A DNA stretch of 57,216 nt from a virus (taxonomy: Duplodnaviria; Caudoviricetes), in IMG/VR virus record IMGVR_UViG_3300035182_001074, positions 1 through 57,216 of that record; one strand, 5' to 3'. The position numbers were made by a program, and so were the translations under genes. The notes under the pieces are model-generated. The model was not told the DNA's origin and made no database searches. It was given only the letters and a program-made list of their open reading frames with translations. Every line of letters begins with the position of its first letter. Position 1 is the stretch's first letter. Below are positions 9,575 through 43,758 of this stretch, piece after piece.

Positions 9575-11263
9575 ATGTCCATTCCTGCTTCCACCCTTGT
9601 CTCGGTAACTCCGAGCGTCCTGAGCGCAGGCGGGAATCCGCTGGCTCTCAATGGCCTTCTGCTTAGCCAGGCTTCCAGGCTTCCGTTCGGAACTCCTCTG
9701 AGCTTCCCCACTGCTGCCTCTGTGGCAGACTACTTCGGCCCGCAGAGCCAAGAAGCTGCCATGGCCGAAACCTACTTCCTCGGTTTTGATGGCAGCAATA
9801 CCAAGCCTGGAGCTCTTCTGTTCTCGCGCTATGCTGCCACCGCCATCCCTGCCTTCCTGCGCAGTGGTATTCCCACGCTGTCGCTGGCACAGGTCAACGC
9901 CATCGCTCCTGCGTCCGTCACTGCTTCCATCGCCCTTACCGTCATGACGGTCACTGCAGTCAGCTCTGGGGTGCTTGCTCCTGGCATGCTATTGACTGGC
10001 TCTGGCGTCACTGCCAATACCAGGATCGTCAACCAGCTAACTGGCACACCTGGCGGAACTGGAACCTATACGGTGGACACGAGCCAGACCACTGCCAGCA
10101 CAACCATTACTGGAGCTTATGATCTGGTGGTCGTGGTTGATGGCGTTACCAAAACTGCTTCGTCGCTTAATCTGTCTTCTGCACTGAGTCTGTCTGCTGC
10201 TGCTTCACTCATCACCACTGCGCTCGGTGCTGGCCAGACCACGACTTTCGACTCCACACTCCATGAATTCGTCATCACGAGCTCAACCACTGGCGCGTCG
10301 TCCACTCTAGCCTACGCTACTGGTCTCGGCGCGACCACGCTTGGCTTCACTGCTGCTACTGGTGCGGTGCTCAGCCAGGGCAGTGCGATCCAGACTCCGG
10401 CTTCTGCCATGGCTGCTGTCATCGCATCTACGCAGAACTGGGTGTCCTTCTCTAGCACCTTTGAACCCAGCCTCGCAGACAAGGAAGCCTTCTCCTCCTG
10501 GACGAACAGCACAAATGGCCGCTATCTCTATGTCCCCTACGACACAGACGCGACTGCTGCATCCAGCCAGCCAGCGACCTTCACTGGTTTGGGGAGCTGG
10601 CTGAAGGCGAACACCATCAGTGGCGTTGCTCCTGTGTGGAACAACTACCTCCACGCAGCTTTTGTGCTTGGCGCCATCGCGAGCATCGACTTCACCCAGC
10701 ACAATGGACGGATCACCCTGGCCTTTAAGGTGCAGAGTGGCCTCGTTGCCACTGTCACCGACCCTGCGTCTGCTGCCAACCTGATCGCGAATGGATACAA
10801 CTTCGTCGGCGCTTATGCGACTGCGAACCAGCTCTTCACCCAGTTCCAGCCCGGGCAGGTGAGCGGACCCTACGCTTGGATTGATAGCTACATCAATGCC
10901 ATCTGGCTCAACAACCAGTTCCAGCTTGCGCTGATGACGCTGCTCCAGAACATCAAGTCTGACCCATACAATCCGCAAGGCTACGGCCTCATCCGCAGCG
11001 CTCTGCAGGATCCTATCAATCAGGCTGTCAACTTTGGTGCCATTCGCTCCAATGTTCCGCTCTCTGCTGCTCAGGCTGCAGAGGTCAATGCTGCAGCTGG
11101 CATGGCCATTGATGGGATCCTTTCTAGTCGTGGGTGGTATCTTCAGATCCTCCCAGCTTCTGCTCAGGTTCGCGCAGCTCGTCAGTCTCCGCCTTGCACC
11201 TTCTGGTTCATGGATGGACAGAGCATCCAGCAGGTTAATCTCGCCTCCATTGACGTTCAGTAA
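9575..11263 (+). CDS. Tail sheath protein (DUF3383)
   Basis: MSIPAS, YFLGFD, QNWVSF, WIDSY.N.IWL and RAARQSP motifs; contains an inserted beta-rich repeat. Confidence 0.92.
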   Translation: MSIPASTLVSVTPSVLSAGGNPLALNGLLLSQASRLPFGTPLSFPTAASVADYFGPQSQEAAMAETYFLGFDGSNTKPGALLFSRYAATAIPAFLRSGIPTLSLAQVNAIAPASVTASIALTVMTVTAVSSGVLAPGMLLTGSGVTANTRIVNQLTGTPGGTGTYTVDTSQTTASTTITGAYDLVVVVDGVTKTASSLNLSSALSLSAAASLITTALGAGQTTTFDSTLHEFVITSSTTGASSTLAYATGLGATTLGFTAATGAVLSQGSAIQTPASAMAAVIASTQNWVSFSSTFEPSLADKEAFSSWTNSTNGRYLYVPYDTDATAASSQPATFTGLGSWLKANTISGVAPVWNNYLHAAFVLGAIASIDFTQHNGRITLAFKVQSGLVATVTDPASAANLIANGYNFVGAYATANQLFTQFQPGQVSGPYAWIDSYINAIWLNNQFQLALMTLLQNIKSDPYNPQGYGLIRSALQDPINQAVNFGAIRSNVPLSAAQAAEVNAAAGMAIDGILSSRGWYLQILPASAQVRAARQSPPCTFWFMDGQSIQQVNLASIDVQ

Positions 11264-11275
11264 AAGGAGCCCATC

Positions 11276-11710
11276 ATGGCCAAGACTATCACTGCCGCAA
11301 ACAGCGTCTTCACGCTGGTTGTCCCCGGTCTTTTCGACTCCCCCGTCCAGCTGGAAGGGTATGGCGCTGATGAAGCTGTCAGCACTGACTCCATCGCTAG
11401 TGCTGAGGCTATCATTGGTGTGGATGGACACAAGAGCGCAGGGTTCGTGTTCGCTCTCGTGAAGCAGAAGATCACCATCGAGCCGACAAGCCCTTCTCTC
11501 GATTTCTTCTACGAGTGGATCCGGGCAATGCAGAGTCAGCGGGAGGACCTCCCTTGCGATGGTGTGATCGATCTTCCTGCCATTGGCCAGACTTACAACT
11601 GCGTCAATGGCTCGCTCACACTGTATCCGCCACTTCCTGGCATCAAGAAGGTTCTTCAGCCTTTGCAGTTTGAAATCACATGGGAACGCGTGGAAGCAGC
11701 TGGGGTGTAG
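11276..11710 (+). CDS. Tail tube protein
   Basis: TITAAN, GVDGHKSAG and KKVLQP..F.ITW; follows the sheath. Confidence 0.85.
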   Translation: MAKTITAANSVFTLVVPGLFDSPVQLEGYGADEAVSTDSIASAEAIIGVDGHKSAGFVFALVKQKITIEPTSPSLDFFYEWIRAMQSQREDLPCDGVIDLPAIGQTYNCVNGSLTLYPPLPGIKKVLQPLQFEITWERVEAAGV

Positions 11711-11711
11711 C

Positions 11712-12179
11712 ATGCGCAAGACTGAAGTATTCATCGGTGACAGCGGACGAGATACTGGCAAGGTATTTCTGCTGAAGGAGATGTCTGCTGATCGAGCAGA
11801 GAAGTGGGCAGCTCGTGCTCTCAATGCTCTTGCTGCTTCTGGCGTTCAGGTTCCAGACGGAGCTGGGCTGTCTCACATTGCAGCCATTGGCTTTGATTCC
11901 TTCAGAGGTCTTCCGTGGGAACAGGTGGAGCCTCTACTGGATGAGATGTTCTCCTGCGTTCAGAGAATCCCAGATCCAGAGAAGAAATCAGCACAGTTCC
12001 CTCTGGGGTATTCACGACCGCTCATGGAAGATGACATTGAGGAGGTGCTCACTCGTTTGAAGATACGAGGCAAGATCCTGGAGCTGCACCTCGGTTTTTC
12101 TATCGCCGACGCCCTCTCAACCTTGAGAGGCCCCAACGTCGGCAAGCCCCAAACGAATACCGGAACGTCCCTGGAATAA
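11712..12179 (+). CDS. Tail assembly chaperone (gpG-like)
   Basis: GRD.GK.F...EM.A..AEKWA and DIEEV.T motifs; lies between tube and tape measure. Confidence 0.8.
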   Translation: MRKTEVFIGDSGRDTGKVFLLKEMSADRAEKWAARALNALAASGVQVPDGAGLSHIAAIGFDSFRGLPWEQVEPLLDEMFSCVQRIPDPEKKSAQFPLGYSRPLMEDDIEEVLTRLKIRGKILELHLGFSIADALSTLRGPNVGKPQTNTGTSLE

Positions 12180-32074: not shown

Positions 32075-32090
32075 ATTCGCTCCTCAAGGA

Positions 32091-32119
32091 TGCTGCCCCA
32101 GGACCATCCTGGGGCAGCA
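32091..32119 (-). promoter_or_regulatory. 13-bp perfect hairpin upstream of the helicase RBS
   Basis: TGCTGCCCCAGGA-CCA-TCCTGGGGCAGCA; no U-tract. Confidence 0.55.
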
Positions 32120-32131
32120 CATTGGACAATG

Positions 32132-33181
32132 CTAGCGCAGCTCAATGAATCCGTGCTCAGCGTCCCATTTCGCGTCGGTTGCACGCCCACCAGCCTTAAT
32201 GTAATCCTCGTAGGTCATGCCATCCACAATCAGGTTGAAGCTGGCATAGCCAATGCTTCCTTCCCGGCGAGGATTGTCCTTGACGAGCTTGTAGATGCAC
32301 TTGCCAGCAAAATTGCTACGTGGCGACCGAGGTGCTCCAGGGACGCGAGGCTCGCGGGGTGCCTTTGGCTCTCGTTTTGACTTCACATCTTTGATGTTCT
32401 TGAGGTCTGGCTTTGCCTCGCCAAGAGGGAATTCTCTGCCCTTGTCAGTTAGGGTGACGTAGTAGAACGGATCAGTTGCTGTCACCGTGTCATCTTCAAT
32501 ATCAACGCAACCAAGACGCTTGAGAGTGTCCAGCTCTTTGATTGCAATGTCCACAGCCACTTTGGCTGCGAGGGACACTTCGTGGCTCGTTGCAACCTCT
32601 TCCTCGTTAGCAACCTTGCGCTGCTTTATGATGGACCGAACAAACCAGAGCACTGCAGCAGCTCGGCTCTGAGACGTCAGCTCAGCCGGAAGGCCACGCT
32701 GTGGTTTGCGTTCACAAGCACGAGTCTTTCCGGCAGCTTCCAGCTCACTGCCCTTCATTTTCGATTGAGCCTCCAGGAGGAGCTTAGCTGCATTGGCGAA
32801 GTCTGGATCATCAGACCGCACTCCTGCTGCTTCAAGAGAGCCCATTTTAGCGTCGCTCGCCTCCTGCTTAGCAGCCTGCGCAGCAGCCTTGGCCTTCTCT
32901 CGGTCAGCTGCCTTGGCTTGCTCACGGTCCGTCTTCTCCTGTAGCTTCTTAGCTTCTGCAGCAAGAGCAGCTTCGTATTTGGCGATGATGCTCGGATCAA
33001 CCTTTACTGATTTCATTGCCTGGATAAACTTGCTCGTATTGGCAATAGCAAGACCATGCAGCCTCAGCTCAGCAGTCTTGCGATCCTTGAATTTCTTGAC
33101 TTCAGTCTTGCTGAGCTTGTTGTAGCACCCAACGATTTCTGCAGTGCTAAGCTCGAGGATGATGCTGTCAGGCCCTGGCAT
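32132..33181 (-). CDS. Putative DNA-binding protein: coiled coil, winged-HTH-like segment and C-terminal NPRREG domain
   Basis: LDTLKRLGCV..YYVTLTDKG (MarR-like wing); C-terminal domain paralogous to 33273-33512 and 46522-46710. Confidence 0.65.
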   Translation of the reverse strand: MPGPDSIILELSTAEIVGCYNKLSKTEVKKFKDRKTAELRLHGLAIANTSKFIQAMKSVKVDPSIIAKYEAALAAEAKKLQEKTDREQAKAADREKAKAAAQAAKQEASDAKMGSLEAAGVRSDDPDFANAAKLLLEAQSKMKGSELEAAGKTRACERKPQRGLPAELTSQSRAAAVLWFVRSIIKQRKVANEEEVATSHEVSLAAKVAVDIAIKELDTLKRLGCVDIEDDTVTATDPFYYVTLTDKGREFPLGEAKPDLKNIKDVKSKREPKAPREPRVPGAPRSPRSNFAGKCIYKLVKDNPRREGSIGYASFNLIVDGMTYEDYIKAGGRATDAKWDAEHGFIELR

Positions 33182-33272
33182 TGATTTCTCCCTTTGAGTT
33201 TGCGGCTACTGCCGCGACTTGGACGCTGTTGCTTGTTGACTTGGATTCGTTTGTGCTTCTTGTGGATGAGTG

Positions 33273-33512
33273 CTACTTCGGCTTCCTGCTTGTGAGATGG
33301 ATGTTGTTGTGGGCGATGTCCCAGCGCAGATCCGTTGTTCTTCCTCCGAGCTCAATGAACTTGGCCACAGTCATACCATTCTTGATCAGCGCGAAGGAGG
33401 CATGACCAAGGGTGCCCTCCTTGCGCGGATTGGTCTTCACGTCCTTGATGATGATGAGGTCGGGGCGAGTGATTGTGCCACGAGTGTTCTTGGTGGTGGA
33501 CTTCTTAGCCAT
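33273..33512 (-). CDS. Stand-alone NPR(R/K)EG-domain basic protein
   Basis: [19 protein letters not shown]...F...GG...DL.WD. Confidence 0.75.
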   Translation of the reverse strand: MAKKSTTKNTRGTITRPDLIIIKDVKTNPRKEGTLGHASFALIKNGMTVAKFIELGGRTTDLRWDIAHNNIHLTSRKPK

Positions 33513-33559
33513 GATAGGTTCCTTTGCTTTGGTTGATGGGAAGGGAACTGCTGATTGAA

Positions 33560-33781
33560 CTACTTGTTGGCACGCCTGCGGTCCTTCTTGCGCTCACTGC
33601 GTGACGGCCTGCTTGTGCTGGTAGGTGCTTCGGCCACAGAAGGAGCAGGCTTCAGGCTGTCCTTCCACTCCTTCTTACAGCAGTAGGCCCAGATGTCTGG
33701 ATGGCTAGCCATCTTTGCGGCTGCTAGCTGGTCAGCGACTCGGTAGATGTCACCCGTCGGTTTATACTTGATGCACTTCAT
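33560..33781 (-). CDS. Small basic hypothetical protein
   Basis: GGAGG RBS; MKCIK...RV.D..A...W.Y..K.EWK. Confidence 0.65.
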   Translation of the reverse strand: MKCIKYKPTGDIYRVADQLAAAKMASHPDIWAYCCKKEWKDSLKPAPSVAEAPTSTSRPSRSERKKDRRRANK

Positions 33782-33822
33782 AGGTATTTCCTCCATGCAG
33801 GCCGTTAGGCCAAGGAACAAAT

Positions 33823-33851
33823 GCCCCACCACACACGATGCGTGGTGGGGC
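33823..33851 (-). terminator. Probable terminator after the DUF932-like gene
   Basis: GCCCCACCAC/GTGGTGGGGC stem followed on the - strand by ATTTGTT. Confidence 0.55.
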
Positions 33852-33872
33852 TGGTCAAACTATTTCAGAAGG

Positions 33873-34955
33873 CTACACTCCAACCAGTTCATCTTCATCA
33901 ATTTCATTCTTTTTGGGCATACGCGCAAGGTCGCTGTAGTCCTTGGCGCCCATCTGCATGATGCGCCCACCCAGAGCTTGCAAGTCCATGGCACGATCAT
34001 AGCTGTCTGTTACATTTGCAAGAACCGTCACCGCATTCGCCAGCCCCCAGCGGCTGTAATCCTTAGACTCAGCCAAAGAGATCAGCGCAGATTCAGCCTC
34101 CGGCTTCAGCAGGTTGTAACGTGCTGCCAGAGACTCAACCACCATTGTCGGTTCAGCCGGAAGCTCCTGATCTGCTACGTCGCGCAGCGTGTTCAGTGTC
34201 TTCTCGAACATTTCTCTGCTGGCCATCGTCTCAAGATATTCAGCCAGTTCGGCGATCATTGCTCGTGTCTTCAGCATCTGCGTTGCGCTGCTCAAGGCGA
34301 TCCATCCGTCTTCTGCTTCCAAGTAGCTGCCTCCAATGTGGGCTCGTCGTCGCACTTGATCAGCAATGGTCATGCCATTCGTGCAGGCCAGGCGATAGAT
34401 GAGAGGAGATACGCTCAAGGCACCCTTGCCGACTTCAGAGTTGCGGATGACAACTCCATAGCGCACCACATCACCCTTGCGGATTTCGCCTTCAATTTCC
34501 ATCGTGGCCTGAAGATGCATGTAGTCATCACTGACATTGGATGACTCGATCTTGGCACCAAGTCGTTCCAGCACAGGATACATTCCATCAAACACAAGCT
34601 CATTGTCAATGCGCCGATAGCTATCAGACAGGAACGCACGAGCAGCGCCATTTAGCGTGCGCACCATTCGCCGCCCTTCTGCTTTCTGGATCAGAGTATT
34701 GAAGTTGTGGACCAGCAGATCAGGGAACTGCTGTTCCAGGCGCTGGGCAAATTTCCTTGGCATGCCAAGGTAACCAGTCACCTGTGAGCTAGTGTGGTGG
34801 CTCATGGTTAGGTCGTGGTCTCCAACTTCAAGATGGATGACCTTGTTCTCGTTACGGAACTTGATGGTGTTGCTTGGCGCAACCAGATCTTCTTTGCCGC
34901 TGGCGTGTGCCACGATGGTAGTTACGAACTCAGATGGGGTCATGCCCTTGATCAT
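33873..34955 (-). CDS. DUF932-like phage/plasmid early protein
   Basis: RAFLSDSYRRIDN, NSEVG.G and RLACTNGM motifs; AAGGAG RBS. Confidence 0.8.
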   Translation of the reverse strand: MIKGMTPSEFVTTIVAHASGKEDLVAPSNTIKFRNENKVIHLEVGDHDLTMSHHTSSQVTGYLGMPRKFAQRLEQQFPDLLVHNFNTLIQKAEGRRMVRTLNGAARAFLSDSYRRIDNELVFDGMYPVLERLGAKIESSNVSDDYMHLQATMEIEGEIRKGDVVRYGVVIRNSEVGKGALSVSPLIYRLACTNGMTIADQVRRRAHIGGSYLEAEDGWIALSSATQMLKTRAMIAELAEYLETMASREMFEKTLNTLRDVADQELPAEPTMVVESLAARYNLLKPEAESALISLAESKDYSRWGLANAVTVLANVTDSYDRAMDLQALGGRIMQMGAKDYSDLARMPKKNEIDEDELVGV

Positions 34956-35001
34956 TGCGTCTCCTTTATTGGCGCACATGCGCCACTAGGGTTGTGGTTG
35001 A

Positions 35002-35214
35002 CTACATCCCTCTCTTGGCCAGCATGCGATTGAGGCAGGCAGTTAGGCCAGATAGGTAATCACGCTGTTCGTTGATAGCAGTTTGGATATCAGAGGCACC
35101 TAGAGGATCAGCAAGTTCCAGCTGATCCTCTAGATCGCACAGCCTGTCTTCTTCTTGCCGGATTCGTTTGCGTGCTTGTTCGATGGCAGGGTCAGATCGA
35201 GTCGTCTGGTTCAT
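35002..35214 (-). CDS. Small coiled-coil protein
   Basis: ATGA overlap with the upstream gene. Confidence 0.6.
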   Translation of the reverse strand: MNQTTRSDPAIEQARKRIRQEEDRLCDLEDQLELADPLGASDIQTAINEQRDYLSGLTACLNRMLAKRGM

Positions 35215-36110
35215 CTCGCTGCCCCAGCCAGTCGCTCGCCAAGGCTGATCTCCTCGCCAACTTCACGACCAGCATTGTATGCTTTGATGTCTTTGCGCGC
35301 AAGTTCACGCTGCTGCTGGCGCTGATATTTTTCCCACCATCGCTTGCTTGCCTTGGCTTCCTTCTCCTTCTCAGCAGCACTCTTCTCCGGCGCTGGCTCG
35401 GCTGCTCGCTGCTCCTTCCAGCGATCGCGCGCAGCCATTGCGCGAGCAAATGCACCTTCGCCATACCACGCGTCGTAGTTGGCCTCGTATTCTGTCTTAA
35501 CCAGCGACCGAATCATCAGGCCAGTTTCCTTCACCTCTGTATTAGCAGAAGGTGCAGGGTTCTGCATGGCATAAGCCTTTTGCCGGATTCGCTCTCCCAG
35601 GCGCTCGGCACACCCTTCTTTCCAGCTCACGCCTGACTTTGAGTTGCGTTCCTTGTTGCGGTATGGGCACAGATCCTCAATGAGCTCCGCCAGCCAGCCA
35701 TACATGCACATGACTGCGGCAACATTGGATTCCTTTCCAAGGATCATGTGTCGCTTGACTTTGTGGCGGTAGCTCTTTCCTGCACTCACCCGTTCTTCAT
35801 CCTCCAGCATCTCAGCTACCCAATACCAGCAGTAGTTAGCTTCAGCAATGGAACGGCACAGGTCACGCTGCCACTTATACATGGCGCTACGATCGATCTT
35901 GGTCTGCTCCCTCTTCTCCTTCTGTGGAGCTGTTCCGCCTTCAACCTCAGCTGCTTTGATTGTGGCCATGTCAAGGTTGTATTTCGCCAGCAGTTCTTGG
36001 GCACGACCCATCGCTAGCGCAGCCTCATTCTCGTTTGTGGCCTTGTTGCCCAGATTCAGTAGCAGCTGAATCTTTCGAACAATCTTGTCATTGATTGCTT
36101 CAGCCATCAC
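35211..36110 (-). CDS. DUF2786-domain protein
   Basis: KIQLLLNLG...NENEAALAMGRAQELLAKYNL and C-terminal AY.AG...G..I.L. Confidence 0.85.
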   Translation of the reverse strand: MMAEAINDKIVRKIQLLLNLGNKATNENEAALAMGRAQELLAKYNLDMATIKAAEVEGGTAPQKEKREQTKIDRSAMYKWQRDLCRSIAEANYCWYWVAEMLEDEERVSAGKSYRHKVKRHMILGKESNVAAVMCMYGWLAELIEDLCPYRNKERNSKSGVSWKEGCAERLGERIRQKAYAMQNPAPSANTEVKETGLMIRSLVKTEYEANYDAWYGEGAFARAMAARDRWKEQRAAEPAPEKSAAEKEKEAKASKRWWEKYQRQQQRELARKDIKAYNAGREVGEEISLGERLAGAAR

Positions 36111-36448
36111 CAGACTCCTTGAGCAGCTTCAGCCTGATTGCTGTGTTCTTCTTCTTTCAGGTAGACGACGTAAAGTCGCTTGCCAGATTCACAGGCAACA
36201 TAGCTGCCACCATCGTCAATCTTGTCGCCAGCCGCAATTGCTGCATTGAGTTTCCTCATCACAAAGGCAACGTCGCAATCACTGATGCTCTTAGGATCCA
36301 ACGCATGCCCGTTAGCCTTCTTGTATGCCTCGCGATCTGTGGTAGAGGGAACGAAATGCTTCCCGGAACAGCCGCAGCAGCATTTTCCGGCTCGGCCACT
36401 GTAAACACTGAGCACTTCGTCTAACGTAACTAGCTTTGTGCGCGTCAT
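36107..36448 (-). CDS. Hypothetical early protein (CCCGC motif)
   Basis: AAGGAG RBS; YSGRAGKCCCGCSGK; downstream of hammerhead 1. Confidence 0.75.
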   Translation of the reverse strand: MTRTKLVTLDEVLSVYSGRAGKCCCGCSGKHFVPSTTDREAYKKANGHALDPKSISDCDVAFVMRKLNAAIAAGDKIDDGGSYVACESGKRLYVVYLKEEEHSNQAEAAQGVW

Positions 36449-36473
36449 GGCACACTCCTTTGTTTTAGTTGAG

Positions 36474-36546
36474 CGATCTGGCTCATCAGCGACTGGGGAT
36501 CATTCCAGCCGGACGCCTGCTGCCTCACACAGCAGGCGTTTCGCCA
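36474..36546 (-). ncRNA. Type II hammerhead ribozyme 1
   Basis: UGGC-GAAAC-GCCUGCUG/CAGCAGGC-GUC-CGGCUGG/CCAGUCG-CUGAUGA-GCCA; complete catalytic core. Confidence 0.93.
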
Positions 36547-36560
36547 TCTCAAACGCGGTT

Positions 36561-37355
36561 CTAGCTGAGCAGGCCAAGCAGTGAGTGGCGCAGCTTGACG
36601 CTCAGGTCCATATTGTTCACGATCGTCTCAACTTTATTGCTATCCAGTTCTGTCTCAGTGTCATGGATAATGGACTTGACTGCCTCAGTAAAGTTCACCC
36701 CAGTAGTCAGATCAAGGTTATTCAGCGCATCAGCTACTAAGTCAGTGAAGTCGTAGTCATCCAGTCTATTTTCAACTACCTCGTGGATCGCCTCCTGGAT
36801 CTCCTCCTGGCCGTCCTCTATCTGATTTTTAACCTCGTTGTGGATCAACTTCTGAATTGAATCCTGGTTGTCCTCTATCTGACTTTCAATCTCGTCGTGG
36901 ATCCATTCCCTGATTGATCCCTTGCCGACCATGTCACTGAGAACAACGTCAGAACGGATGCCATCCATCTGTTCAACAAGAGTTTCGATTCGCGCAGTGG
37001 TGTCCATCTCAAGCTGGGCAACTCGCTTGCGAAGAGTGTCAATGCTTTGAATCAGCTCAGCCACCACTTCATTCGTCAGCAGAGTGCCTTCTTGTTCAGG
37101 CTCTTCACTGAAGGGAGCCTCTGCGGCGATGGCCCGCAGCGCAGCATTGGGAGCAGAGATGATAGGCGCATCAAGTTTGCGCTGCTGGACGTTCGCCAAT
37201 TCATCGAACGTCAGCGAGCACATGCGCTCAGCCAGCTTAATCCCATTGTGGTAAATTGCACCAGAGTTGTCAACTGTGGCTCCTAGCAGCAAAGCCACAG
37301 CTTCCATGTTCAGGCTGAACAGGTCGATGGTGCTGTTATTGTTTGTGCGCGTCAT
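36561..37355 (-). CDS. Acidic helical-repeat hypothetical early protein
   Basis: AAGGAG RBS; three I..IH.EV..QIED-type repeats; lies between hammerheads 2 and 1. Confidence 0.75.
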   Translation of the reverse strand: MTRTNNNSTIDLFSLNMEAVALLLGATVDNSGAIYHNGIKLAERMCSLTFDELANVQQRKLDAPIISAPNAALRAIAAEAPFSEEPEQEGTLLTNEVVAELIQSIDTLRKRVAQLEMDTTARIETLVEQMDGIRSDVVLSDMVGKGSIREWIHDEIESQIEDNQDSIQKLIHNEVKNQIEDGQEEIQEAIHEVVENRLDDYDFTDLVADALNNLDLTTGVNFTEAVKSIIHDTETELDSNKVETIVNNMDLSVKLRHSLLGLLS

Positions 37356-37380
37356 GGCACACTCCTTTTCTTCAATTGAG

Positions 37381-37451
37381 CGATCTGGCTCATCAGCAGT
37401 AGCGGATCATTGCTACTGGACGGTGCGGCAAGCTCGCCGCACCGTTTCGCC
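37381..37451 (-). ncRNA. Type II hammerhead ribozyme 2
   Basis: GGC-GAAAC-GGUGCGGC/GCCGCACC-GUC-CAGUAGC/GCUACUG-CUGAUGA-GCC. Confidence 0.93.
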
Positions 37452-37481
37452 TCATGCAGTGATCTTCGGAACAGCTTGCAA

Positions 37482-37718
37482 TTATTTCCCCACTGTCGTA
37501 GGCCGCATTGCCATGCTCATGCGGTCGAATGCCTGGTCAATGTGTTCAACAGCAGAAGTGATGTGGTGCTTTTCGCCGCGCAGCTTCACGCTGGCCAGTT
37601 CAATTTTCAACCGCAGCAGCGTTGCTTGAACCTTCTTTAGCTTCTCAATTGTGCGTTCACGCTCAGTCATTTGGTCCCCTGAAGTGGGAAGGGCTGTGGG
37701 CTGGATCGTTGCGCTCAT
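37482..37718 (-). CDS. Small helical hypothetical early protein
   Basis: AAGGAG RBS; lies between hammerheads 3 and 2. Confidence 0.7.
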   Translation of the reverse strand: MSATIQPTALPTSGDQMTERERTIEKLKKVQATLLRLKIELASVKLRGEKHHITSAVEHIDQAFDRMSMAMRPTTVGK

Positions 37719-37739
37719 GGCGCGTCTCCTTTTGTTGAG

Positions 37740-37809
37740 CAACCTGGCTCATCAGCAGCGTGAGGTCATCCACGCTGGACTGCTCGCGAAGATGCGAGCA
37801 GTTTCGCCA
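37740..37809 (-). ncRNA. Type II hammerhead ribozyme 3
   Basis: UGGC-GAAAC-UGCUCGC/GCGAGCA-GUC-CAGCGUG/CACGCUG-CUGAUGA-GCCA. Confidence 0.93.
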
Positions 37810-37811
37810 TC

Positions 37812-38195
37812 CAATGAGAACGAAGAGAGTCTCAGGCTTCCTGCGTCGGTCTCCAGTTTGGGTCTCTTTCGTCTGTGCTTTCCGCTAGGTGTCATCACGA
37901 CAAGGGATTTAAGCAGCCTCACACAGCATCCAGTTCTACAAAACTGTTCTCGTTCTCATCCGTTATCTGTGTGATCAGGAACACCAGTCACAACAGGAGA
38001 GAGCTGCAACGCCACACCAGGACCATCAGCGCCAGCTCATCTCGCATTTTCAAATCACAGGTTCATCATCTCTCTGCTCAGCAGCACCCGTTGGGATGAA
38101 CAACACCCACTCAAGTCCTAGCTATCAGATCAACTTCCGCCTGCTCACTTCGGCTCCCCCAACCAGCCGCACGCCCTCAGCCTCAACTGAGTGAC
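37812..38195 (-). ncRNA. Candidate structured non-coding leader RNA
   Basis: No credible - strand ORF; many hairpins and a long-range stem AUGAGAACGA/UCGUUCUCAU. Confidence 0.4.
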
Positions 38196-38202
38196 CATCG
38201 TA

Positions 38203-38240
38203 ATTATCTCGCCATTTAGGCCACTTTGGTTAATTTTTTT
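38203..38240 (-). promoter_or_regulatory. Putative promoter (A-tract, TTAACC-N19-GATAAT)
   Basis: Same architecture at 47109-47148 and 53867-53906; sits at the head of the ribozyme operon. Confidence 0.55.
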
Positions 38241-38263
38241 CCGCACAGAAAACTGCTGAAAAT

Positions 38264-38423
38264 AAACGACTTATTGATTCAACAGCTGCCCACAATATAA
38301 GCACTTTTATGGGCATTTGCTTCTAACTGCCTAGATACAAACGACTTACTGATCCAGCAGATGCCCATAATATAAGCACATTTATGGGCATCTGCTTCTA
38401 GCTACCTGGATACAAACGACTTA
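38264..38423. repeat. 75-bp tandem duplication (two copies plus a 10-bp third) with internal inverted repeat
   Basis: AAACGACTTA at 38264, 38339 and 38414; GCAGATGCCCATAA/TTATGGGCATCTGC at 38357-38395. Confidence 0.85.
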
Positions 38424-41282
38424 CGCATCACGCTTGGAATACTGCTCCAAAGCCCCGACCCCGCTGAGCTTTCGCCAGGCAGTTATGCGCACCTGCCTGA
38501 AGCCAGCTTTCACTTTGCCCTTGAAGATGAACCAATCGTTCATGCGCCCATGCTCAATCAGCGGCAAACCAAGCTTGTTGTAGTCGTGCCGATCAACCAT
38601 GCACGCAATCTGATCTGTGTCGTCTTCTGCTGTGAACAGCACCATCAGGCTCGGTCCCTTGATGATGCTGCCATTGCGCTTCTTCACGTGCGTTGGATCA
38701 TTGAGATCGCGAAGATCCTTCTCGATGATCTTAGCAATGAAACAGCATTCTACTTCTCCATCCTCACTCTGCACATCCTCAACATTTTTCAGCTTTGATC
38801 TGATGCCATAGCGCCCCGGCTCTCGCTTTAGGTGGCCCCATCTCTCTTCACACTCAAAGATGTGGTCGTATGGGGTTGAGCCATTGGCGAGTTTGTTCTG
38901 CTGGCCTGCTGTCAATTCAATGCCTCGTGACCTGCGTAAGAGGATCTCGCTGGCCATCTTCTCGCCAATGCCCTTGATGTTTGTCAGTCCGCCAATCAGT
39001 TGCCCTTCTTGCACTGACCAGGTCTTCTGGGAAAGAAAAGGATCGTATGGCTTGAAGACATAGCCTTCCTTATGAAGCTCCCGCAGGAGCCGGATGGACT
39101 GCTCCTCGTCTTTGGCATTGCGAAGGCAAGCAGCACCAAACTCCAAGGGGAACTTCGCCTTCATTACCATGCACCAATAGCTGACCATTGCGTATGCAAC
39201 TGCGTGGCTTCGGTTGAATGACCACGAACCCATGGTGTTGATCTGGTTCCAGACTCGCAGAGCATCATCCTCATTGATTCCCTGCTCAATTGCGCCAGTG
39301 CGAAAACGGAACCAATACTGATCAAAGAATTCTTTCCCCAAGGATTTTGACATTGCTTTGCGCAGACTTGTCACATCTGCCCAGCTCAACTTACCCATGT
39401 CACGCGCAATCTGGATCACCTGCTCCTGGTAGATCACGATGCCATAGGTAACCCTGGTGATGTGAGCGATCATCGGATGCAATGGGGTCGCTGGGTGTTC
39501 CCCGGTTCTCCTTCTGATATACTCTGTGGTGCCTCCTGAATGCAACGGACCAGGCCGTGCTAGGGCTGTCATTGCTGCGATATCTTCAAAGTTCTCCACT
39601 GCGAACTGGTTGACCAAGGACTGAAGTGCATGGCCTTCAAACTGGAAAATGCCTGCGAACTTCCTGTCGTTTAGGATGTTGAACGCAGACGCATCATCAG
39701 TTCTGTAATCAATCAGCTGCTCGCGAGTCCATCCAACCTGGTCAAGACAATCCTGAAGAACAGATAGTGTCCGCAGGCCAAGCGCATCAATCTTCAGAAG
39801 GTTCAATCGTTCTGCATCAACCTTGTCAATCTGAGCAGCACCCTTCTGGTTGTCAACTGAACAGTAATAGCTGATTGGCTCTGCAGTCACGATGATGCCA
39901 GCAGCATGCTGACCATGCCCTGATGCGTGCCCTTCAATGTCGCTTGCTGTGATCATCTGCGGATATTTTCGCAGCACTGCTCGGCCAATCTCAAGCTCAC
40001 TGAAGGTGTCAGCAATGCAAAAGCCTGCGCGAGAATCTCCACCACTTCGTTCAATGATTGAGTTTTTCAAGTCTGTGACTTCCCACAAGGGAACGTTCAA
40101 TGCCTTAGCGATGGTGTCGATGGCGCTCTTGGCTTTGTAACGCATAACAGTTCCCAGCCGGGCGACCTTCTCCTGACCATATTTCCTGTATAAATATTCG
40201 AACACCAGGTCGCGACGATCGTCGGGGAAGTCAATGTCAATATCAGGATAGTCAAAACGATTGACGTCAATGAATCGTTCAAAGAGCAGTCCGTAAGGAA
40301 TCGGGTCAATCTCTGTGATGCGCAGCAGGTAGCACACAAGCGAGCCACAGGACGAGCCACGCGCAGGACCAACCAGCATTTCACTTTTTGCATATTGAAC
40401 CAGATCCCACACGAGGTAGAAGTAGTCCTCAAATCCTTTGTCGTGGATCAGTTCCAGTTCCCGATCTAGCCTCGCTGCATAAACTGGATCTTTCAAGTCA
40501 ACCTTGCGCTGTGGAGCGGCCTGCTCACACAGCGCACGCAGAGTCGGTAATGATGGATCTGCCTTGACCATCGTGCCGATTGGCAGGTCTGCGTTGCACA
40601 TTTCCGCAATCTCAGCTGCGGTGCGCAATGCTTCCTCCTGTCCAGGCCAACACAGTTTCCATTCGGTGCTGCTCAGCAGATGCATAGGCGAAGTTCTCAT
40701 CAGCTTTTCATGGCCAGTCAGAGCTTCATACACTGCCTTATCGGTGATGCGCGGATAATAATTATCTGAGGTTGCAACTGTCTTGAACCCACGCATGCTG
40801 GCGAATTCTGGTGCCTTCATCTGCGAAGCTGGGCTTAGCTCAACGTATATATTTTTTCGCTTTGGTAAATTGCCCCACACAGGATGCGAGCCAGACAGAA
40901 CAATGACGCTGTCGCTGATATCAAGAAGTGTCGTGTAGTCAATGCGAGGGGTGTAGTAGAAGTTCTCTTTCTTGGTGCTGAGCCCAACAAGCTCATAGAT
41001 CTCACGCAGCCCTTTGTTGTCTTTGGCCAAGAACACCATCATGTTCATGCCCTGTTTGGTGCGAGCAGTCATGTCATTGACTACTGCTAGCTCAACCCCG
41101 AAAATCGGCTTGCGCTTGGCTGCTTTGCATTTGTCATTCCACTCAACATGGCCAAATGTATTGTAGCGATCTGTTATGGCGACAGGCCCTTCTGTTGCTG
41201 CCAGCACCTTGTCAACAGGACCGAATGCCTCTCTAAACGAATACTCAGTCCTACATCGAAGGTGGATCATCGCAATCTCCAT
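38421..41282 (-). CDS. dnaE: DNA polymerase III alpha subunit-like (family C)
   Basis: PHP-like N-terminus, GPARGSS.GSLV.YLL.IT, PDIDIDF, HAAG, KID.LGL, YQEQ and FN.SHA.AY. Confidence 0.95.
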   Translation of the reverse strand: MEIAMIHLRCRTEYSFREAFGPVDKVLAATEGPVAITDRYNTFGHVEWNDKCKAAKRKPIFGVELAVVNDMTARTKQGMNMMVFLAKDNKGLREIYELVGLSTKKENFYYTPRIDYTTLLDISDSVIVLSGSHPVWGNLPKRKNIYVELSPASQMKAPEFASMRGFKTVATSDNYYPRITDKAVYEALTGHEKLMRTSPMHLLSSTEWKLCWPGQEEALRTAAEIAEMCNADLPIGTMVKADPSLPTLRALCEQAAPQRKVDLKDPVYAARLDRELELIHDKGFEDYFYLVWDLVQYAKSEMLVGPARGSSCGSLVCYLLRITEIDPIPYGLLFERFIDVNRFDYPDIDIDFPDDRRDLVFEYLYRKYGQEKVARLGTVMRYKAKSAIDTIAKALNVPLWEVTDLKNSIIERSGGDSRAGFCIADTFSELEIGRAVLRKYPQMITASDIEGHASGHGQHAAGIIVTAEPISYYCSVDNQKGAAQIDKVDAERLNLLKIDALGLRTLSVLQDCLDQVGWTREQLIDYRTDDASAFNILNDRKFAGIFQFEGHALQSLVNQFAVENFEDIAAMTALARPGPLHSGGTTEYIRRRTGEHPATPLHPMIAHITRVTYGIVIYQEQVIQIARDMGKLSWADVTSLRKAMSKSLGKEFFDQYWFRFRTGAIEQGINEDDALRVWNQINTMGSWSFNRSHAVAYAMVSYWCMVMKAKFPLEFGAACLRNAKDEEQSIRLLRELHKEGYVFKPYDPFLSQKTWSVQEGQLIGGLTNIKGIGEKMASEILLRRSRGIELTAGQQNKLANGSTPYDHIFECEERWGHLKREPGRYGIRSKLKNVEDVQSEDGEVECCFIAKIIEKDLRDLNDPTHVKKRNGSIIKGPSLMVLFTAEDDTDQIACMVDRHDYNKLGLPLIEHGRMNDWFIFKGKVKAGFRQVRITAWRKLSGVGALEQYSKRDA

Positions 41283-41556: not shown

Positions 41557-42105
41557 TTACATCATAGATTCTGCGCGTAGCCATCTAACACAGCGCACCA
41601 GAGCCTCTGTGTCAGCCATCGCCCGATGCGCATCCTTGAAGTCTTCTCCTGTGCAATGCAGATGCAAGTCGCTAAGTCGCATGCGCTTGTTGTTGATCCC
41701 AAAACTTGCCTCAACGGTGCACACCTGCTTTGGTGGCCAAGGAAAGGCAAACTCCTTACCGATGCGAATCAGTTCAAGCTTGAGCAGCGTCTTATCAAAG
41801 TCCAGATTGTGCGCAACCATCATCTGCTCCCCGAGGAAGAAGTCACACAGATCATGATAGTGCGAGGCGAAAGGCTCCTGATCCTTCAGCATTTCATCCG
41901 TAATGCTCGTGATCTTGATGATCTCTTCTGGGAGAGCACAGCCGGGATTGCACATGAAGGTAAGGCGCTCAATTTCCTCCAGCGTGATGTCATCCAGCTT
42001 CACTCCGGCGAATTCAATGATCTGTGGCTGCTCTTCAATGCGGACTAGGCTTGGCAGGATCAGGCCTGTTGTCTCAGTATCGAAGATGATCATAGGTTCG
42101 ACCAC
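41557..42105 (-). CDS. DEDDh 3'-5' exonuclease (Pol III epsilon-like)
   Basis: FDTETTG, AHN..FD and HRA.AD. Confidence 0.92.
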   Translation of the reverse strand: MVEPMIIFDTETTGLILPSLVRIEEQPQIIEFAGVKLDDITLEEIERLTFMCNPGCALPEEIIKITSITDEMLKDQEPFASHYHDLCDFFLGEQMMVAHNLDFDKTLLKLELIRIGKEFAFPWPPKQVCTVEASFGINNKRMRLSDLHLHCTGEDFKDAHRAMADTEALVRCVRWLRAESMM

Positions 42106-42449
42106 ATGTCGTCTGCTTGTTTCTGACGCTGTAGCTGTGCCTCTCGGTCAAGAGACTCCAGCATAGATGCATAGACAATGAGGTCGTGCTGGCTGTCAAT
42201 GTGTCCGACCTCAAAGTTTGCTGCATAGCGCGCAATTTTGACTACCTCCATGTGGAAACAGCCATATCGGTTCCAGTCCTCGGGGCTGTTGATGGTTAGG
42301 CCATTCGGGAACAAGGCCATCATGATGTGGCCAAATCGCTTGTATGCCTCTCCGCTGTTTCCACCATACTGCTTGCCGCGCTGCGCGAAGGTTTGCATTG
42401 CATCCTGCAAGCAGATCTGCGGTCCAGAGATTGTGCTGCGATCATCCAT
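42090..42449 (-). CDS. All-alpha nucleotide-modification-associated protein (DUF6378/Nmad-like)
   Basis: RGKQYG...K.ARY...H.DS..DL.VY..ML pattern; AGGAG RBS. Confidence 0.6.
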   Translation of the reverse strand: MDDRSTISGPQICLQDAMQTFAQRGKQYGGNSGEAYKRFGHIMMALFPNGLTINSPEDWNRYGCFHMEVVKIARYAANFEVGHIDSQHDLIVYASMLESLDREAQLQRQKQADDMWSNL

Positions 42450-42910
42450 CAGTAGTCTCCTTTCTGAACTTGAAAGCAAGTCAAGCCTTCTTTGCGCCAC
42501 ATGTCAACCACAGCATCCCGATCCTCGAACACCCCAACGACATCAAACAGTGGGTAGATCTGCTCGTGATAGATCTCACGTTTGATGATGTGATCAGATC
42601 GATAATCGCCATCCTTGCGCATCAAAAGGCGACGGAATGGGACTCTGTGCTTGATCAACCATTGGATGGTGGCTTCCTGGTAGCGAGAGGACCTCCCAGT
42701 CACCAGGATAATTGGATACCCATCCGCGTTTAAGGCATCGACCACACGAAGAACGTCTGTCTTTGGCTCATCAAGGTTCAGCATTGAATTGAACACTTCC
42801 CAGTTCTTTGTGCCGTGTGGATTGCTGATGTGTATGATGCGATGTCCGCAGTCGGCTATGGTCCCATCAATATCAACGATGTAACACTTAGTCTTGCCGA
42901 CCGCATTCAT
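42449..42910 (-). CDS. HAD-family phosphatase (PNKP 3'-phosphatase-like)
   Basis: DIDGT, VTGR, MR..GD.RSD...K and FEDR. Confidence 0.9.
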   Translation of the reverse strand: MNAVGKTKCYIVDIDGTIADCGHRIIHISNPHGTKNWEVFNSMLNLDEPKTDVLRVVDALNADGYPIILVTGRSSRYQEATIQWLIKHRVPFRRLLMRKDGDYRSDHIIKREIYHEQIYPLFDVVGVFEDRDAVVDMWRKEGLTCFQVQKGDY

Positions 42911-43758
42911 TTGGCCTCCTTGGGAGCATCCATCCCGGTTGGCTGGGCTTCTGCGCGAGTGACTTCCCACAGCTTCTGAATTTCTTCTTTGGTCAGGATG
43001 GCATCGGGGATCTCAAATGGTTCGCCACCCCGACCTTCAACCTTGTGGCATCTGTTGTCATAACGCCGACCAGTGTCAGGGTTGAACACCCCACCCTTGA
43101 TCGGGCAGTCCATGTAGTTGGGAAAGCAGCATGTGCCATTTGTTGCGCAGAACACTCGCAGCATCGGCTCAGTCCACGGCAGCTCCTGGACCACAACACG
43201 GCGAATCTCACGCATCACATTCTGGAACTCTCCTTGTGCTTTCACACACAGACGTTCCCCACACATGTGATGTAGTGTTCGCAGATTTGCTTTGAAGACG
43301 ATATTGGTGCACACATTAGTCGGCAGAACACCACGTGCATCTTGAGCATTGGCACCAGCTTCAATGAGTGCGGAATAGCCGGAGTTGATCTCATGCATCG
43401 TGTTGTCGTAGATCTCTTTGAGCTCCTCGTCTGCGAGGATGCCACCTGTGGTTACGTATTCAAAATCAGCCATGTTCACAGCTCGTTGGGTCTGCTGTGC
43501 GAAGGCAGTCCCAACGCGATGCCTTACTAACTGGTGAGTGAAGGCTCGTGTGACTCCTTCGATGTAGAAGATGAAGTCAATCATCTCCCACGAGGACTTG
43601 ATCGTCCCTAGCATGTAGCGGAGCTCGTCCTTTTTCTTGTCGTCGGTCCAGCTTTCCACGACATCAAGACCATTTGCGCTCATCATGAGCCTGGTCCCTT
43701 TCGTGAATAGCAGCGTCTCAAGGGCACGTGGTGTGTGGTTGATAAGGGTGATTTTCAT
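42907..43758 (-). CDS. thyX: Flavin-dependent thymidylate synthase-like protein (atypical ThyX)
   Basis: RAFTHQLVRHR, DARGVLP and R.C..AQ.E; Thr at the position of the usual motif Ser. Confidence 0.8.
   Translation of the reverse strand: MKITLINHTPRALETLLFTKGTRLMMSANGLDVVESWTDDKKKDELRYMLGTIKSSWEMIDFIFYIEGVTRAFTHQLVRHRVGTAFAQQTQRAVNMADFEYVTTGGILADEELKEIYDNTMHEINSGYSALIEAGANAQDARGVLPTNVCTNIVFKANLRTLHHMCGERLCVKAQGEFQNVMREIRRVVVQELPWTEPMLRVFCATNGTCCFPNYMDCPIKGGVFNPDTGRRYDNRCHKVEGRGGEPFEIPDAILTKEEIQKLWEVTRAEAQPTGMDAPKEAK

Follow-up and report, generated by a model that had tools for sequence, protein, structure and literature searches.

The DNA considered here, which we call the window, is the whole 57,216-nucleotide (nt) stretch of the IMG/VR virus record IMGVR_UViG_3300035182_001074, a complete 57-kb virus record with terminal repeats. 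Three intergenic elements, clustered within 1.34 kb on one strand (-) of this phage genome, are on the evidence of their sequences bona fide type II hammerhead ribozymes. We consider it highly probable that they are active and cut the - strand transcript into hairpin-ended units, likely insulating each gene. The array is a well-verified instance of an arrangement described in 2011 and not a new phenomenon; because triple arrays around single prophage genes have been known, and known to cleave, since that year, the novelty implied by the initial annotation of this DNA is unwarranted.

Detection and fold of the three elements

Rfam searches give full-length matches to RF02276 (Hammerhead_II, model positions 1-66) in all three - strand elements, which are located as follows:

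37735..37809, - strand: hammerhead 1 with its 3' tail, type II; RF02276 match 37743-37809, 36.2 bits; predicted cut 37778/37777
37376..37452, - strand: hammerhead 2 with its tail, type II; RF02276 match 37379-37452, 38.9 bits; predicted cut 37419/37418
36469..36546, - strand: hammerhead 3 with its tail, type II; RF02276 match 36472-36546, 39.2 bits; predicted cut 36512/36511

The gathering score of RF02276 is 37 bits. A check with Infernal and the type II model of Rfam had been proposed in the initial annotation, and its outcome is divided: the match is full-length in 3/3 copies and exceeds the gathering score in copies 2 and 3, but copy 1 falls 0.8 bit short. When the whole window was run against Rfam with fast filters, copy 3 was the sole copy reported. 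A model of our own, R1, gives hammerhead 1 a score of 86 bits, hammerhead 1 being a training sequence of that model. Compared with RF02276, the copies of the window form a sub-lineage with a stem II of 3 base pairs (bp) and a conserved tail, ending in GCUCA, that lies outside the Rfam consensus. No other Rfam family was found at E <= 1 across the 57,216-base window, and no tRNAs were found in it.

Read on the - strand, each element has the order GGC-GAAA-C(stem III)G-UC-(stem I hairpin)-CUGAUGA-GCC. The conserved core, composed of CUGAUGA, GAAA, and the GUC cleavage triplet, is present in 3/3 copies, and the descriptor CGAAAC..GTC..CTGATGAG has three matches against 0.02 expected by chance, a number that is reached in 0/100 shuffles. 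The claim that three complete type II cores lie between the genes is thus confirmed by direct reading, by RF02276, and by the core descriptor.

In the cmscan alignments, loops close stems I and III while stem II carries the 5' and 3' ends, which is the type II layout. Stem I comprises 8, 7, and 7 bp and stem III 9, 11, and 11 bp in copies 1, 2, and 3, respectively. Stem II, the open end of the three-way junction, is GGC/GCC and identical in all three copies. The pairs flanking the core (10.1-11.1, 1.1-2.1, and 15.1-16.1) are G-C, C-G, and A-U in 3/3 copies, canonical pairs adjacent to the core being the acceptance rule given by Perreault et al. (PMC3088659). Loop I is additionally paired with the 3' tail, just 3' of stem II, in a pseudoknot of 5 bp per copy (UGACC:GGUUG in copy 1 and UGAUC:GAUCG in copies 2 and 3). 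Such a pseudoknot is reported to be needed for fast cleavage, as established by mutation and rescue (PMC3088659).

Covariation was evaluated over 7 related hammerheads from 4 contigs, namely the three copies of the window and four from three other contigs. In this alignment, 98.7% of the 153 cells assigned to pairs are paired and 14 of the 23 pairs are altered on both sides, values that are reached in 0/500 shuffles and that refer to n = 7 related sequences with a structure set by the analyst. When the register was slid as a control, pairing amounted to merely 25-44%. The pseudoknot helix is 100% paired over the 7 sequences, with one compensatory change (U-A to C-G) and two one-sided changes. 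The compensatory changes in stems I and III show selection on the RNA fold and not on DNA identity alone, and the covariation count agrees with the original observation that these stems diverge in sequence between the copies and yet pair.

The minimum free energy (MFE) folds of copies 2 and 3, calculated without the pseudoknot, favor the pairing of GGCGA with UCGCU of the tail over stem II, and an inactive conformer is therefore possible. Such a fold is consistent with conditional cleavage, in which the ribozymes would act as switches setting the ratio of the flanked proteins, controlled by ribosome traffic, the GGCGA:UCGCU pairing, ions, or a factor, and it has been suggested before that phage hammerheads cleave in a regulated manner (PMC3088659). 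However, the elements have no aptamer-like additional domain, and their stems and pseudoknot are like those of fast constitutive type II ribozymes; we judge conditional cleavage to be unlikely. Covariation cannot test the alternative pairing, because it involves invariant letters of the core.

Cut sites and predicted transcript units

The - strand reading bears out the positions of the predicted cuts, each 3' of GUC. The same is true of the distances of 59, 63, and 63 nt from the cuts to the ATGs at 37718, 37355, and 36448, each with an AAGGAG, and of the sizes of the two internal units, 359 and 907 nt. The description of the array as having one ribozyme per gene is correct for the first two units, which contain a single gene each, but not for the third cut, which heads a remainder of about nine genes. 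The genes concerned are the following:

37482..37718, - strand: 78-amino-acid (aa) gene after hammerhead 1; basic, isoelectric point (pI) 9.9; no Pfam, PHROG, or NCBIfam family
36561..37355, - strand: 264-aa gene after hammerhead 2; acidic, pI 4.3, with 50 Asp and Glu residues; no Pfam, PHROG, or NCBIfam family
36107..36448, - strand: 113-aa gene after hammerhead 3; small family with an invariant CCCG motif; 16 homologues, all unnamed
32132..36110, - strand: rest of the third unit; DUF2786/DUF7168, 70-aa, DUF932, 90-, 79-, and 349-aa open reading frames (ORFs); no further ribozyme

The intergenic gaps in the remainder of the third unit are at most 91 nt, and Rfam finds nothing there.

The spacing between cut and start codon recurs outside the window. 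It amounts to 50-66 nt in 19/19 hammerhead instances (14 non-redundant), with starts preceded by a Shine-Dalgarno (SD) sequence. We also considered a comparison set of 47 hammerheads that share this stem II and were drawn from bacterial genomes across many phyla. According to a crude rule, 28/47 have an SD-preceded start 45-75 nt past the cut, and in 29/47, as counted from the listed rows, the stop codon of the upstream ORF lies within 5 nt of the first G of the ribozyme. From the spacing to both codons it follows that the ribozyme usually takes up all of the space from a stop codon to the next ribosome-binding site (RBS).

In the predicted folds of the products, stem I begins at nucleotide +1 and is followed by a UGAGC/GCUCA hairpin and then by the unpaired SD and AUG. 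The 3' end of the upstream products is the stem III hairpin, whose predicted energies range from -16 to -21 kcal/mol, with z-scores between -3.7 and -4.3. Copies 2 and 3 are identical at 64/81 positions in their 3' halves, the untranslated region (UTR) and the first five codons included, which hints at duplication or exchange of a cassette.

In the mechanism that we favor, the nascent RNA would fold into stems I and III, the 3-bp stem II, and the pseudoknot between loop I and the 3' tail, and each ribozyme would cleave after GUC. The products would be a 359-nt unit with the 78-aa gene, a 907-nt unit with the 264-aa gene, and a multigene remainder led by the gene with the CCCG motif. The new 5' ends would carry a 5'-OH directly on the stem I hairpin, followed by the UGAGC/GCUCA hairpin and the unpaired AAGGAG and AUG, while the new 3' ends would consist of the strong stem III hairpin bearing a 2',3'-cyclic phosphate. 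The likely effect would be that the stability and the translation start of each gene are uncoupled from the upstream sequence, and the element may be viewed as a natural ribozyme insulator fused to an RBS, in a block of exchangeable accessory genes.

Cleavage by hammerheads leaves 5'-OH and 2',3'-cyclic phosphate ends. From this chemistry we infer the nature of the ends in the present case; cleavage itself and its stabilizing or insulating effects are likewise inferred. In E. coli, RNase E-type decay is slower for an RNA that has a 5'-terminal hairpin and lacks a 5' monophosphate, and a 3' hairpin slows exonucleases. The proposal of the initial annotation that the polycistronic RNA processes itself without protein is still the best reading, and it is also the one published for clusters of this kind (PMC3088659).

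The end chemistry would also suit ligation of the internal 359- and 907-nt units into circular mRNAs, either by a host RtcB-type ligase or by reversal of the hammerhead reaction. Both ends of each unit would have the right groups, and with stem II (GGC/GCC) and the core in common between the copies, the ends of a unit could rebuild a chimeric hammerhead that holds them together; the ends of viroid and retrozyme monomers are described as being held by such reassembly (PMC6765202). However, just 3 bp would have to hold the ends across a loop of 250-800 nt, and the ordinary stop codon in each unit means that a circle would bring no obvious coding gain. In addition, no RNA-ligase or RtcB family was found with Pfam among the 71 phage ORFs scanned, and Perreault et al. 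state, with data not shown there, that neither circular nor spliced products of the arrays were found (PMC3088659). The circular mRNAs that had been suggested for this locus are thus unsupported, and we regard them as most improbable.

The assignment of the array to an early operon does not fare better. The genes belong to a strand block that contains replication genes, but the sole sigma-70-like promoter match falls within the 264-aa gene and is no better than expected by chance. No terminator-like site was found on the - strand.

The accessory island and its relatives

The structural genes of this Pam3-like phage are similar to those of cyanophage Pam3 and of E217-type myoviruses. No close relatives were found by blastn among GenBank phages, with polymerase identity of at most 42%. 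The replication block of the - strand encodes a primase, a UvrD-type helicase, ThyX, a polynucleotide-kinase-type phosphatase, an exonuclease, DNA polymerase III alpha, and an SNF2 helicase. The array is preceded by:

38421..41282, - strand: DNA polymerase III alpha gene; upstream neighbor, used as the anchor for finding relatives
37810..38420, - strand: 610-nt non-coding spacer from the polymerase stop to hammerhead 1; repeats, then a leader of ~430 nt

In eight more distant IMG/VR relatives, L007-L014, whose polymerases are 55-58% identical, the polymerase gene is immediately followed by that for SNF2. The ~6.3 kb at 32075-38420 of the window can accordingly be considered an accessory island, which comprises the spacer, the three ribozymes, the three genes without known family, DUF2786/DUF7168, DUF932, and others, DUF2786/DUF7168 and DUF932 being families seen on phages and plasmids.

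The closest relative, L004, with 76% polymerase identity, has two hammerheads at equivalent places, one after a homologous leader and one before a homologue of the 113-aa gene. The cargo between them, composed of 184-aa and 56-aa genes, is unrelated to the 78-aa and 264-aa genes of the window, while the flanks are homologous. In L005 (60% polymerase identity), which together with L004 forms the closest pair of relatives, a single divergent hammerhead with an 8-bp pseudoknot follows the leader. In both, the hammerheads are syntenic with those of the window, downstream of DNA polymerase III alpha. The metagenome contig L096 contains three hammerheads in 2 kb, one of which precedes a homologue of the 113-aa gene; this homologue and the start of DUF932 at the contig end indicate the same type of island. 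Finally, a high-GC virus contig found via the 113-aa family (L028:1711-3613) carries five type II hammerheads in 1.9 kb. Each of these five precedes, by 50-60 nt, a start codon whose RBS is of the GGAGAGA type, and in some cases the ribozyme overlaps the end of the ORF before it.

In the other polymerase-anchored relatives, no hammerheads were found with RF02276 (whole records of L006, L007, L008, L011, L013, L015, L016, and L017), with Rfam at permissive thresholds (L007, L008, L011, and L013), or with R1 (L006-L018), a narrow model that missed the hammerhead of L005. A scan of metagenomes with the tail motif returned 74 loci, five of which are real hammerheads (L068, L075, L079, L092, and L096); the others were rejected as chance matches within coding DNA. 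The same hammerhead tail is present in two unrelated high-GC phage contigs (L026:1000-1200 and L027, ~1930-2000, - strand), where iteron-like short tandem repeats and a GC-rich conserved leader lie upstream of it and a small first gene follows. The occurrence of the same hammerhead subtype across many phyla means that no host can be inferred from it.

These comparisons bear on the possibility that the modules of ribozyme and RBS matter mainly at the DNA level, as portable cassette boundaries spread by recombination, with cleavage being minor or tolerated. Such a role would fit the wholly different cargo between the homologous flanks of the window and L004, the near-identity of the 3' halves of copies 2 and 3 that reaches into the first five codons, the tail shared with unrelated high-GC phage contigs, and the absence of the entire block from more distant relatives. 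It is at odds with the compensatory changes that keep stems I and III paired and with the cleavage of the published arrays (PMC3088659), and we find it quite unlikely. We give only a small probability to the idea that the modules are self-insulating portable cassette boundaries defining a hypervariable polymerase-SNF2 island in this phage group, where recombination in the conserved 3' halves would swap the cargo and cleavage would make the expression of new genes independent of their neighbors. As stem II and the core are common to all copies, the excised units might also be reassembled in trans, with some circularization or joining at the RNA level.

The leader at 37810-38250 has sequence blocks in common with L004:10070-10477 and L005:10120-10482, for example around GAUUUGAAAA and ACGCAGGAAGCCUG, and a hammerhead comes next in all three. 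The ORFs on the - strand of the spacer are at most 33 aa long, except for a 56-aa frame that overlaps the ribozyme. Both features are compatible with hammerhead 1 serving mainly to release or mature an upstream non-coding RNA of ~430-600 nt with a hairpin-capped 3' end. However, the consensus fold obtained with RNAalifold from the three sequences is weak (-20 kcal/mol over 485 columns) and the leader matches no Rfam family, so that it was rejected as a structured RNA. Moreover, in L096 and L028 the first hammerhead comes after a coding gene and not after a leader. We consider this role of hammerhead 1 very improbable.

Just past the polymerase stop, at 38264-38413 on the - strand, the spacer contains two 75-nt tandem direct repeats that are 87% identical, with a third, partial copy of the first 18 nt. 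One of the repeats includes a 15-bp hairpin (38356-38396) that is perfectly paired and lacks a U-tract. The repeats and hairpin could be an operator, a promoter, or a processing site. The match to polymerase III alpha is ~300 nt longer in L008-L012 and L014 (7001-10128) than in the window, with tblastn in pieces, and that of L011 (7001-10970) is ~1.1 kb longer. The extra length suggests an insertion, such as an intein, an intron, or an extra domain.

The three flanked genes and 18 cargo ORFs of the relatives received no function from Pfam, PHROGs, or NCBIfam, and the Atlas gave no usable match for the cargo proteins. The 264-aa protein has 19-aa tandem repeats (57-nt repeats at 36768-36881), and L005 contains at 11214-11723 an acidic repetitive ORF that resembles this gene, also with no family found. 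The family of the 113-aa protein has an invariant V-Y-x-G...C-C-C-G and a C-terminal RLYVVY-like strand, with CCCGC in 16/17 aligned sequences; a confident structural model of this protein (predicted local distance difference test, pLDDT, of 80.5) has no PDB fold match at E <= 0.001. We considered whether the gene with the CCCG motif is tightly tied to the ribozymes and rejected this, L028 being the only one of 16 viral homologue loci with hammerheads. A twister-P5 ribozyme (50.9 bits) is found at L031:3643-3699, with a 113-aa gene homologue ~860 nt upstream of it.

A further candidate partner of the ribozymes was the HAD-type polynucleotide-kinase phosphatase ORF at 42449-42970 on the - strand. 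The 136-aa ORF that follows it (region 42090-42970) matches a family of phage polynucleotide kinases, but just their C-terminal part, and the genome showed no clear partner in the form of a P-loop kinase or RNA ligase. A specific link between this phosphatase and the hammerhead ends was rejected: homologues occur in 12/15 polymerase-anchored loci, including L007-L014, which do not have the island, and no hammerheads were found in those of the latter loci that were searched.

Several points weigh against the reading of the elements as active, insulating hammerheads. To the score of copy 1 below the gathering score and the alternative pairing in the MFE folds of copies 2 and 3 can be added that the spacing of 50-66 nt could just reflect tight gene packing, and that the 5' UTR folds of the whole products are no more stable than those of shuffles (z-scores of -0.8 to -1.1). 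The stabilization expected from the 5'-OH and the terminal hairpin leans on the RNase E biology of E. coli. Furthermore, of the 16 viral loci that contain a 113-aa gene homologue, 14 have no ribozyme at E <= 0.1, which means that the gene with the CCCG motif does not require a hammerhead.

Relation to known hammerhead systems

Natural type II hammerheads and their pseudoknot were discovered by Perreault et al. in 2011, who also described clustered hammerheads around prophage genes and proposed that they process mRNA to gene length (PMC3088659). Triple arrays were reported from prophages of Clostridium scindens, Azorhizobium caulinodans, and Agrobacterium tumefaciens; three triple arrays cleaved in vitro, and one in E. 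coli (PMC3088659). The array of the window shares with them the type II layout with the pseudoknot between loop I and the 3' tail, the presence of several copies on one strand within ~2 kb, and the flanking, in phage DNA, of individual genes or short gene blocks whose identity varies (PMC3088659). In contrast to these prophages in cultured bacteria, the window is the complete genome of an uncultured Pam3-like virus. The flanked genes also differ, being without known family, and ardA is absent, whereas the published prophage arrays are associated with ardA, by which an anti-restriction role was suggested (PMC3088659).

A functional analogy can be drawn with RiboJ insulators, in which, as in the window, a hammerhead lies immediately upstream of the RBS and a hairpin leads the 5' UTR. 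A RiboJ-like second hairpin before an unpaired SD is likewise predicted in the units of the window. RiboJ is engineered and was derived from a plant satellite-RNA hammerhead. It is reported that RiboJ, a hammerhead with a hairpin, normalizes the 5' UTR and that the uncleaved mRNA decays ~2x faster (PMC7536230). In viroids, satellite RNAs, and retrozymes, hammerheads of the same polarity likewise bound a unit with ligatable ends (PMC6765202). However, the units in these RNAs are replicons or retroelements for which circles are proven and the ligase is known, whereas those of the window would be ordinary phage mRNAs, with no phage ligase found.

According to reviews of 2019 (PMC6765202) and 2023 (PMC10085705), the biological reason for bacterial and phage hammerheads is still unknown. 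Our literature searches returned no paper that settles the function of phage hammerhead arrays and none that connects such arrays with DUF932 or DUF2786. The present locus does not explain the abundance of hammerhead and twister ribozymes in bacteria and phages. What it adds to the known arrays is the island context, the variation in the number of ribozymes among relatives, the constant abutment on an RBS, and the near-identity of copies 2 and 3 in their 3' halves. Together, the related phages form a comparative series with 0, 1, 2, 3, or 5 hammerheads at equivalent intergenic places and with different cargo. The geometry of a ribozyme wedged between a stop codon and the next RBS favors the view of these elements as insulators or punctuation, and the locus yields simple constructs with which the effect of cleavage on the half-life and translation of the downstream mRNA can be tested.

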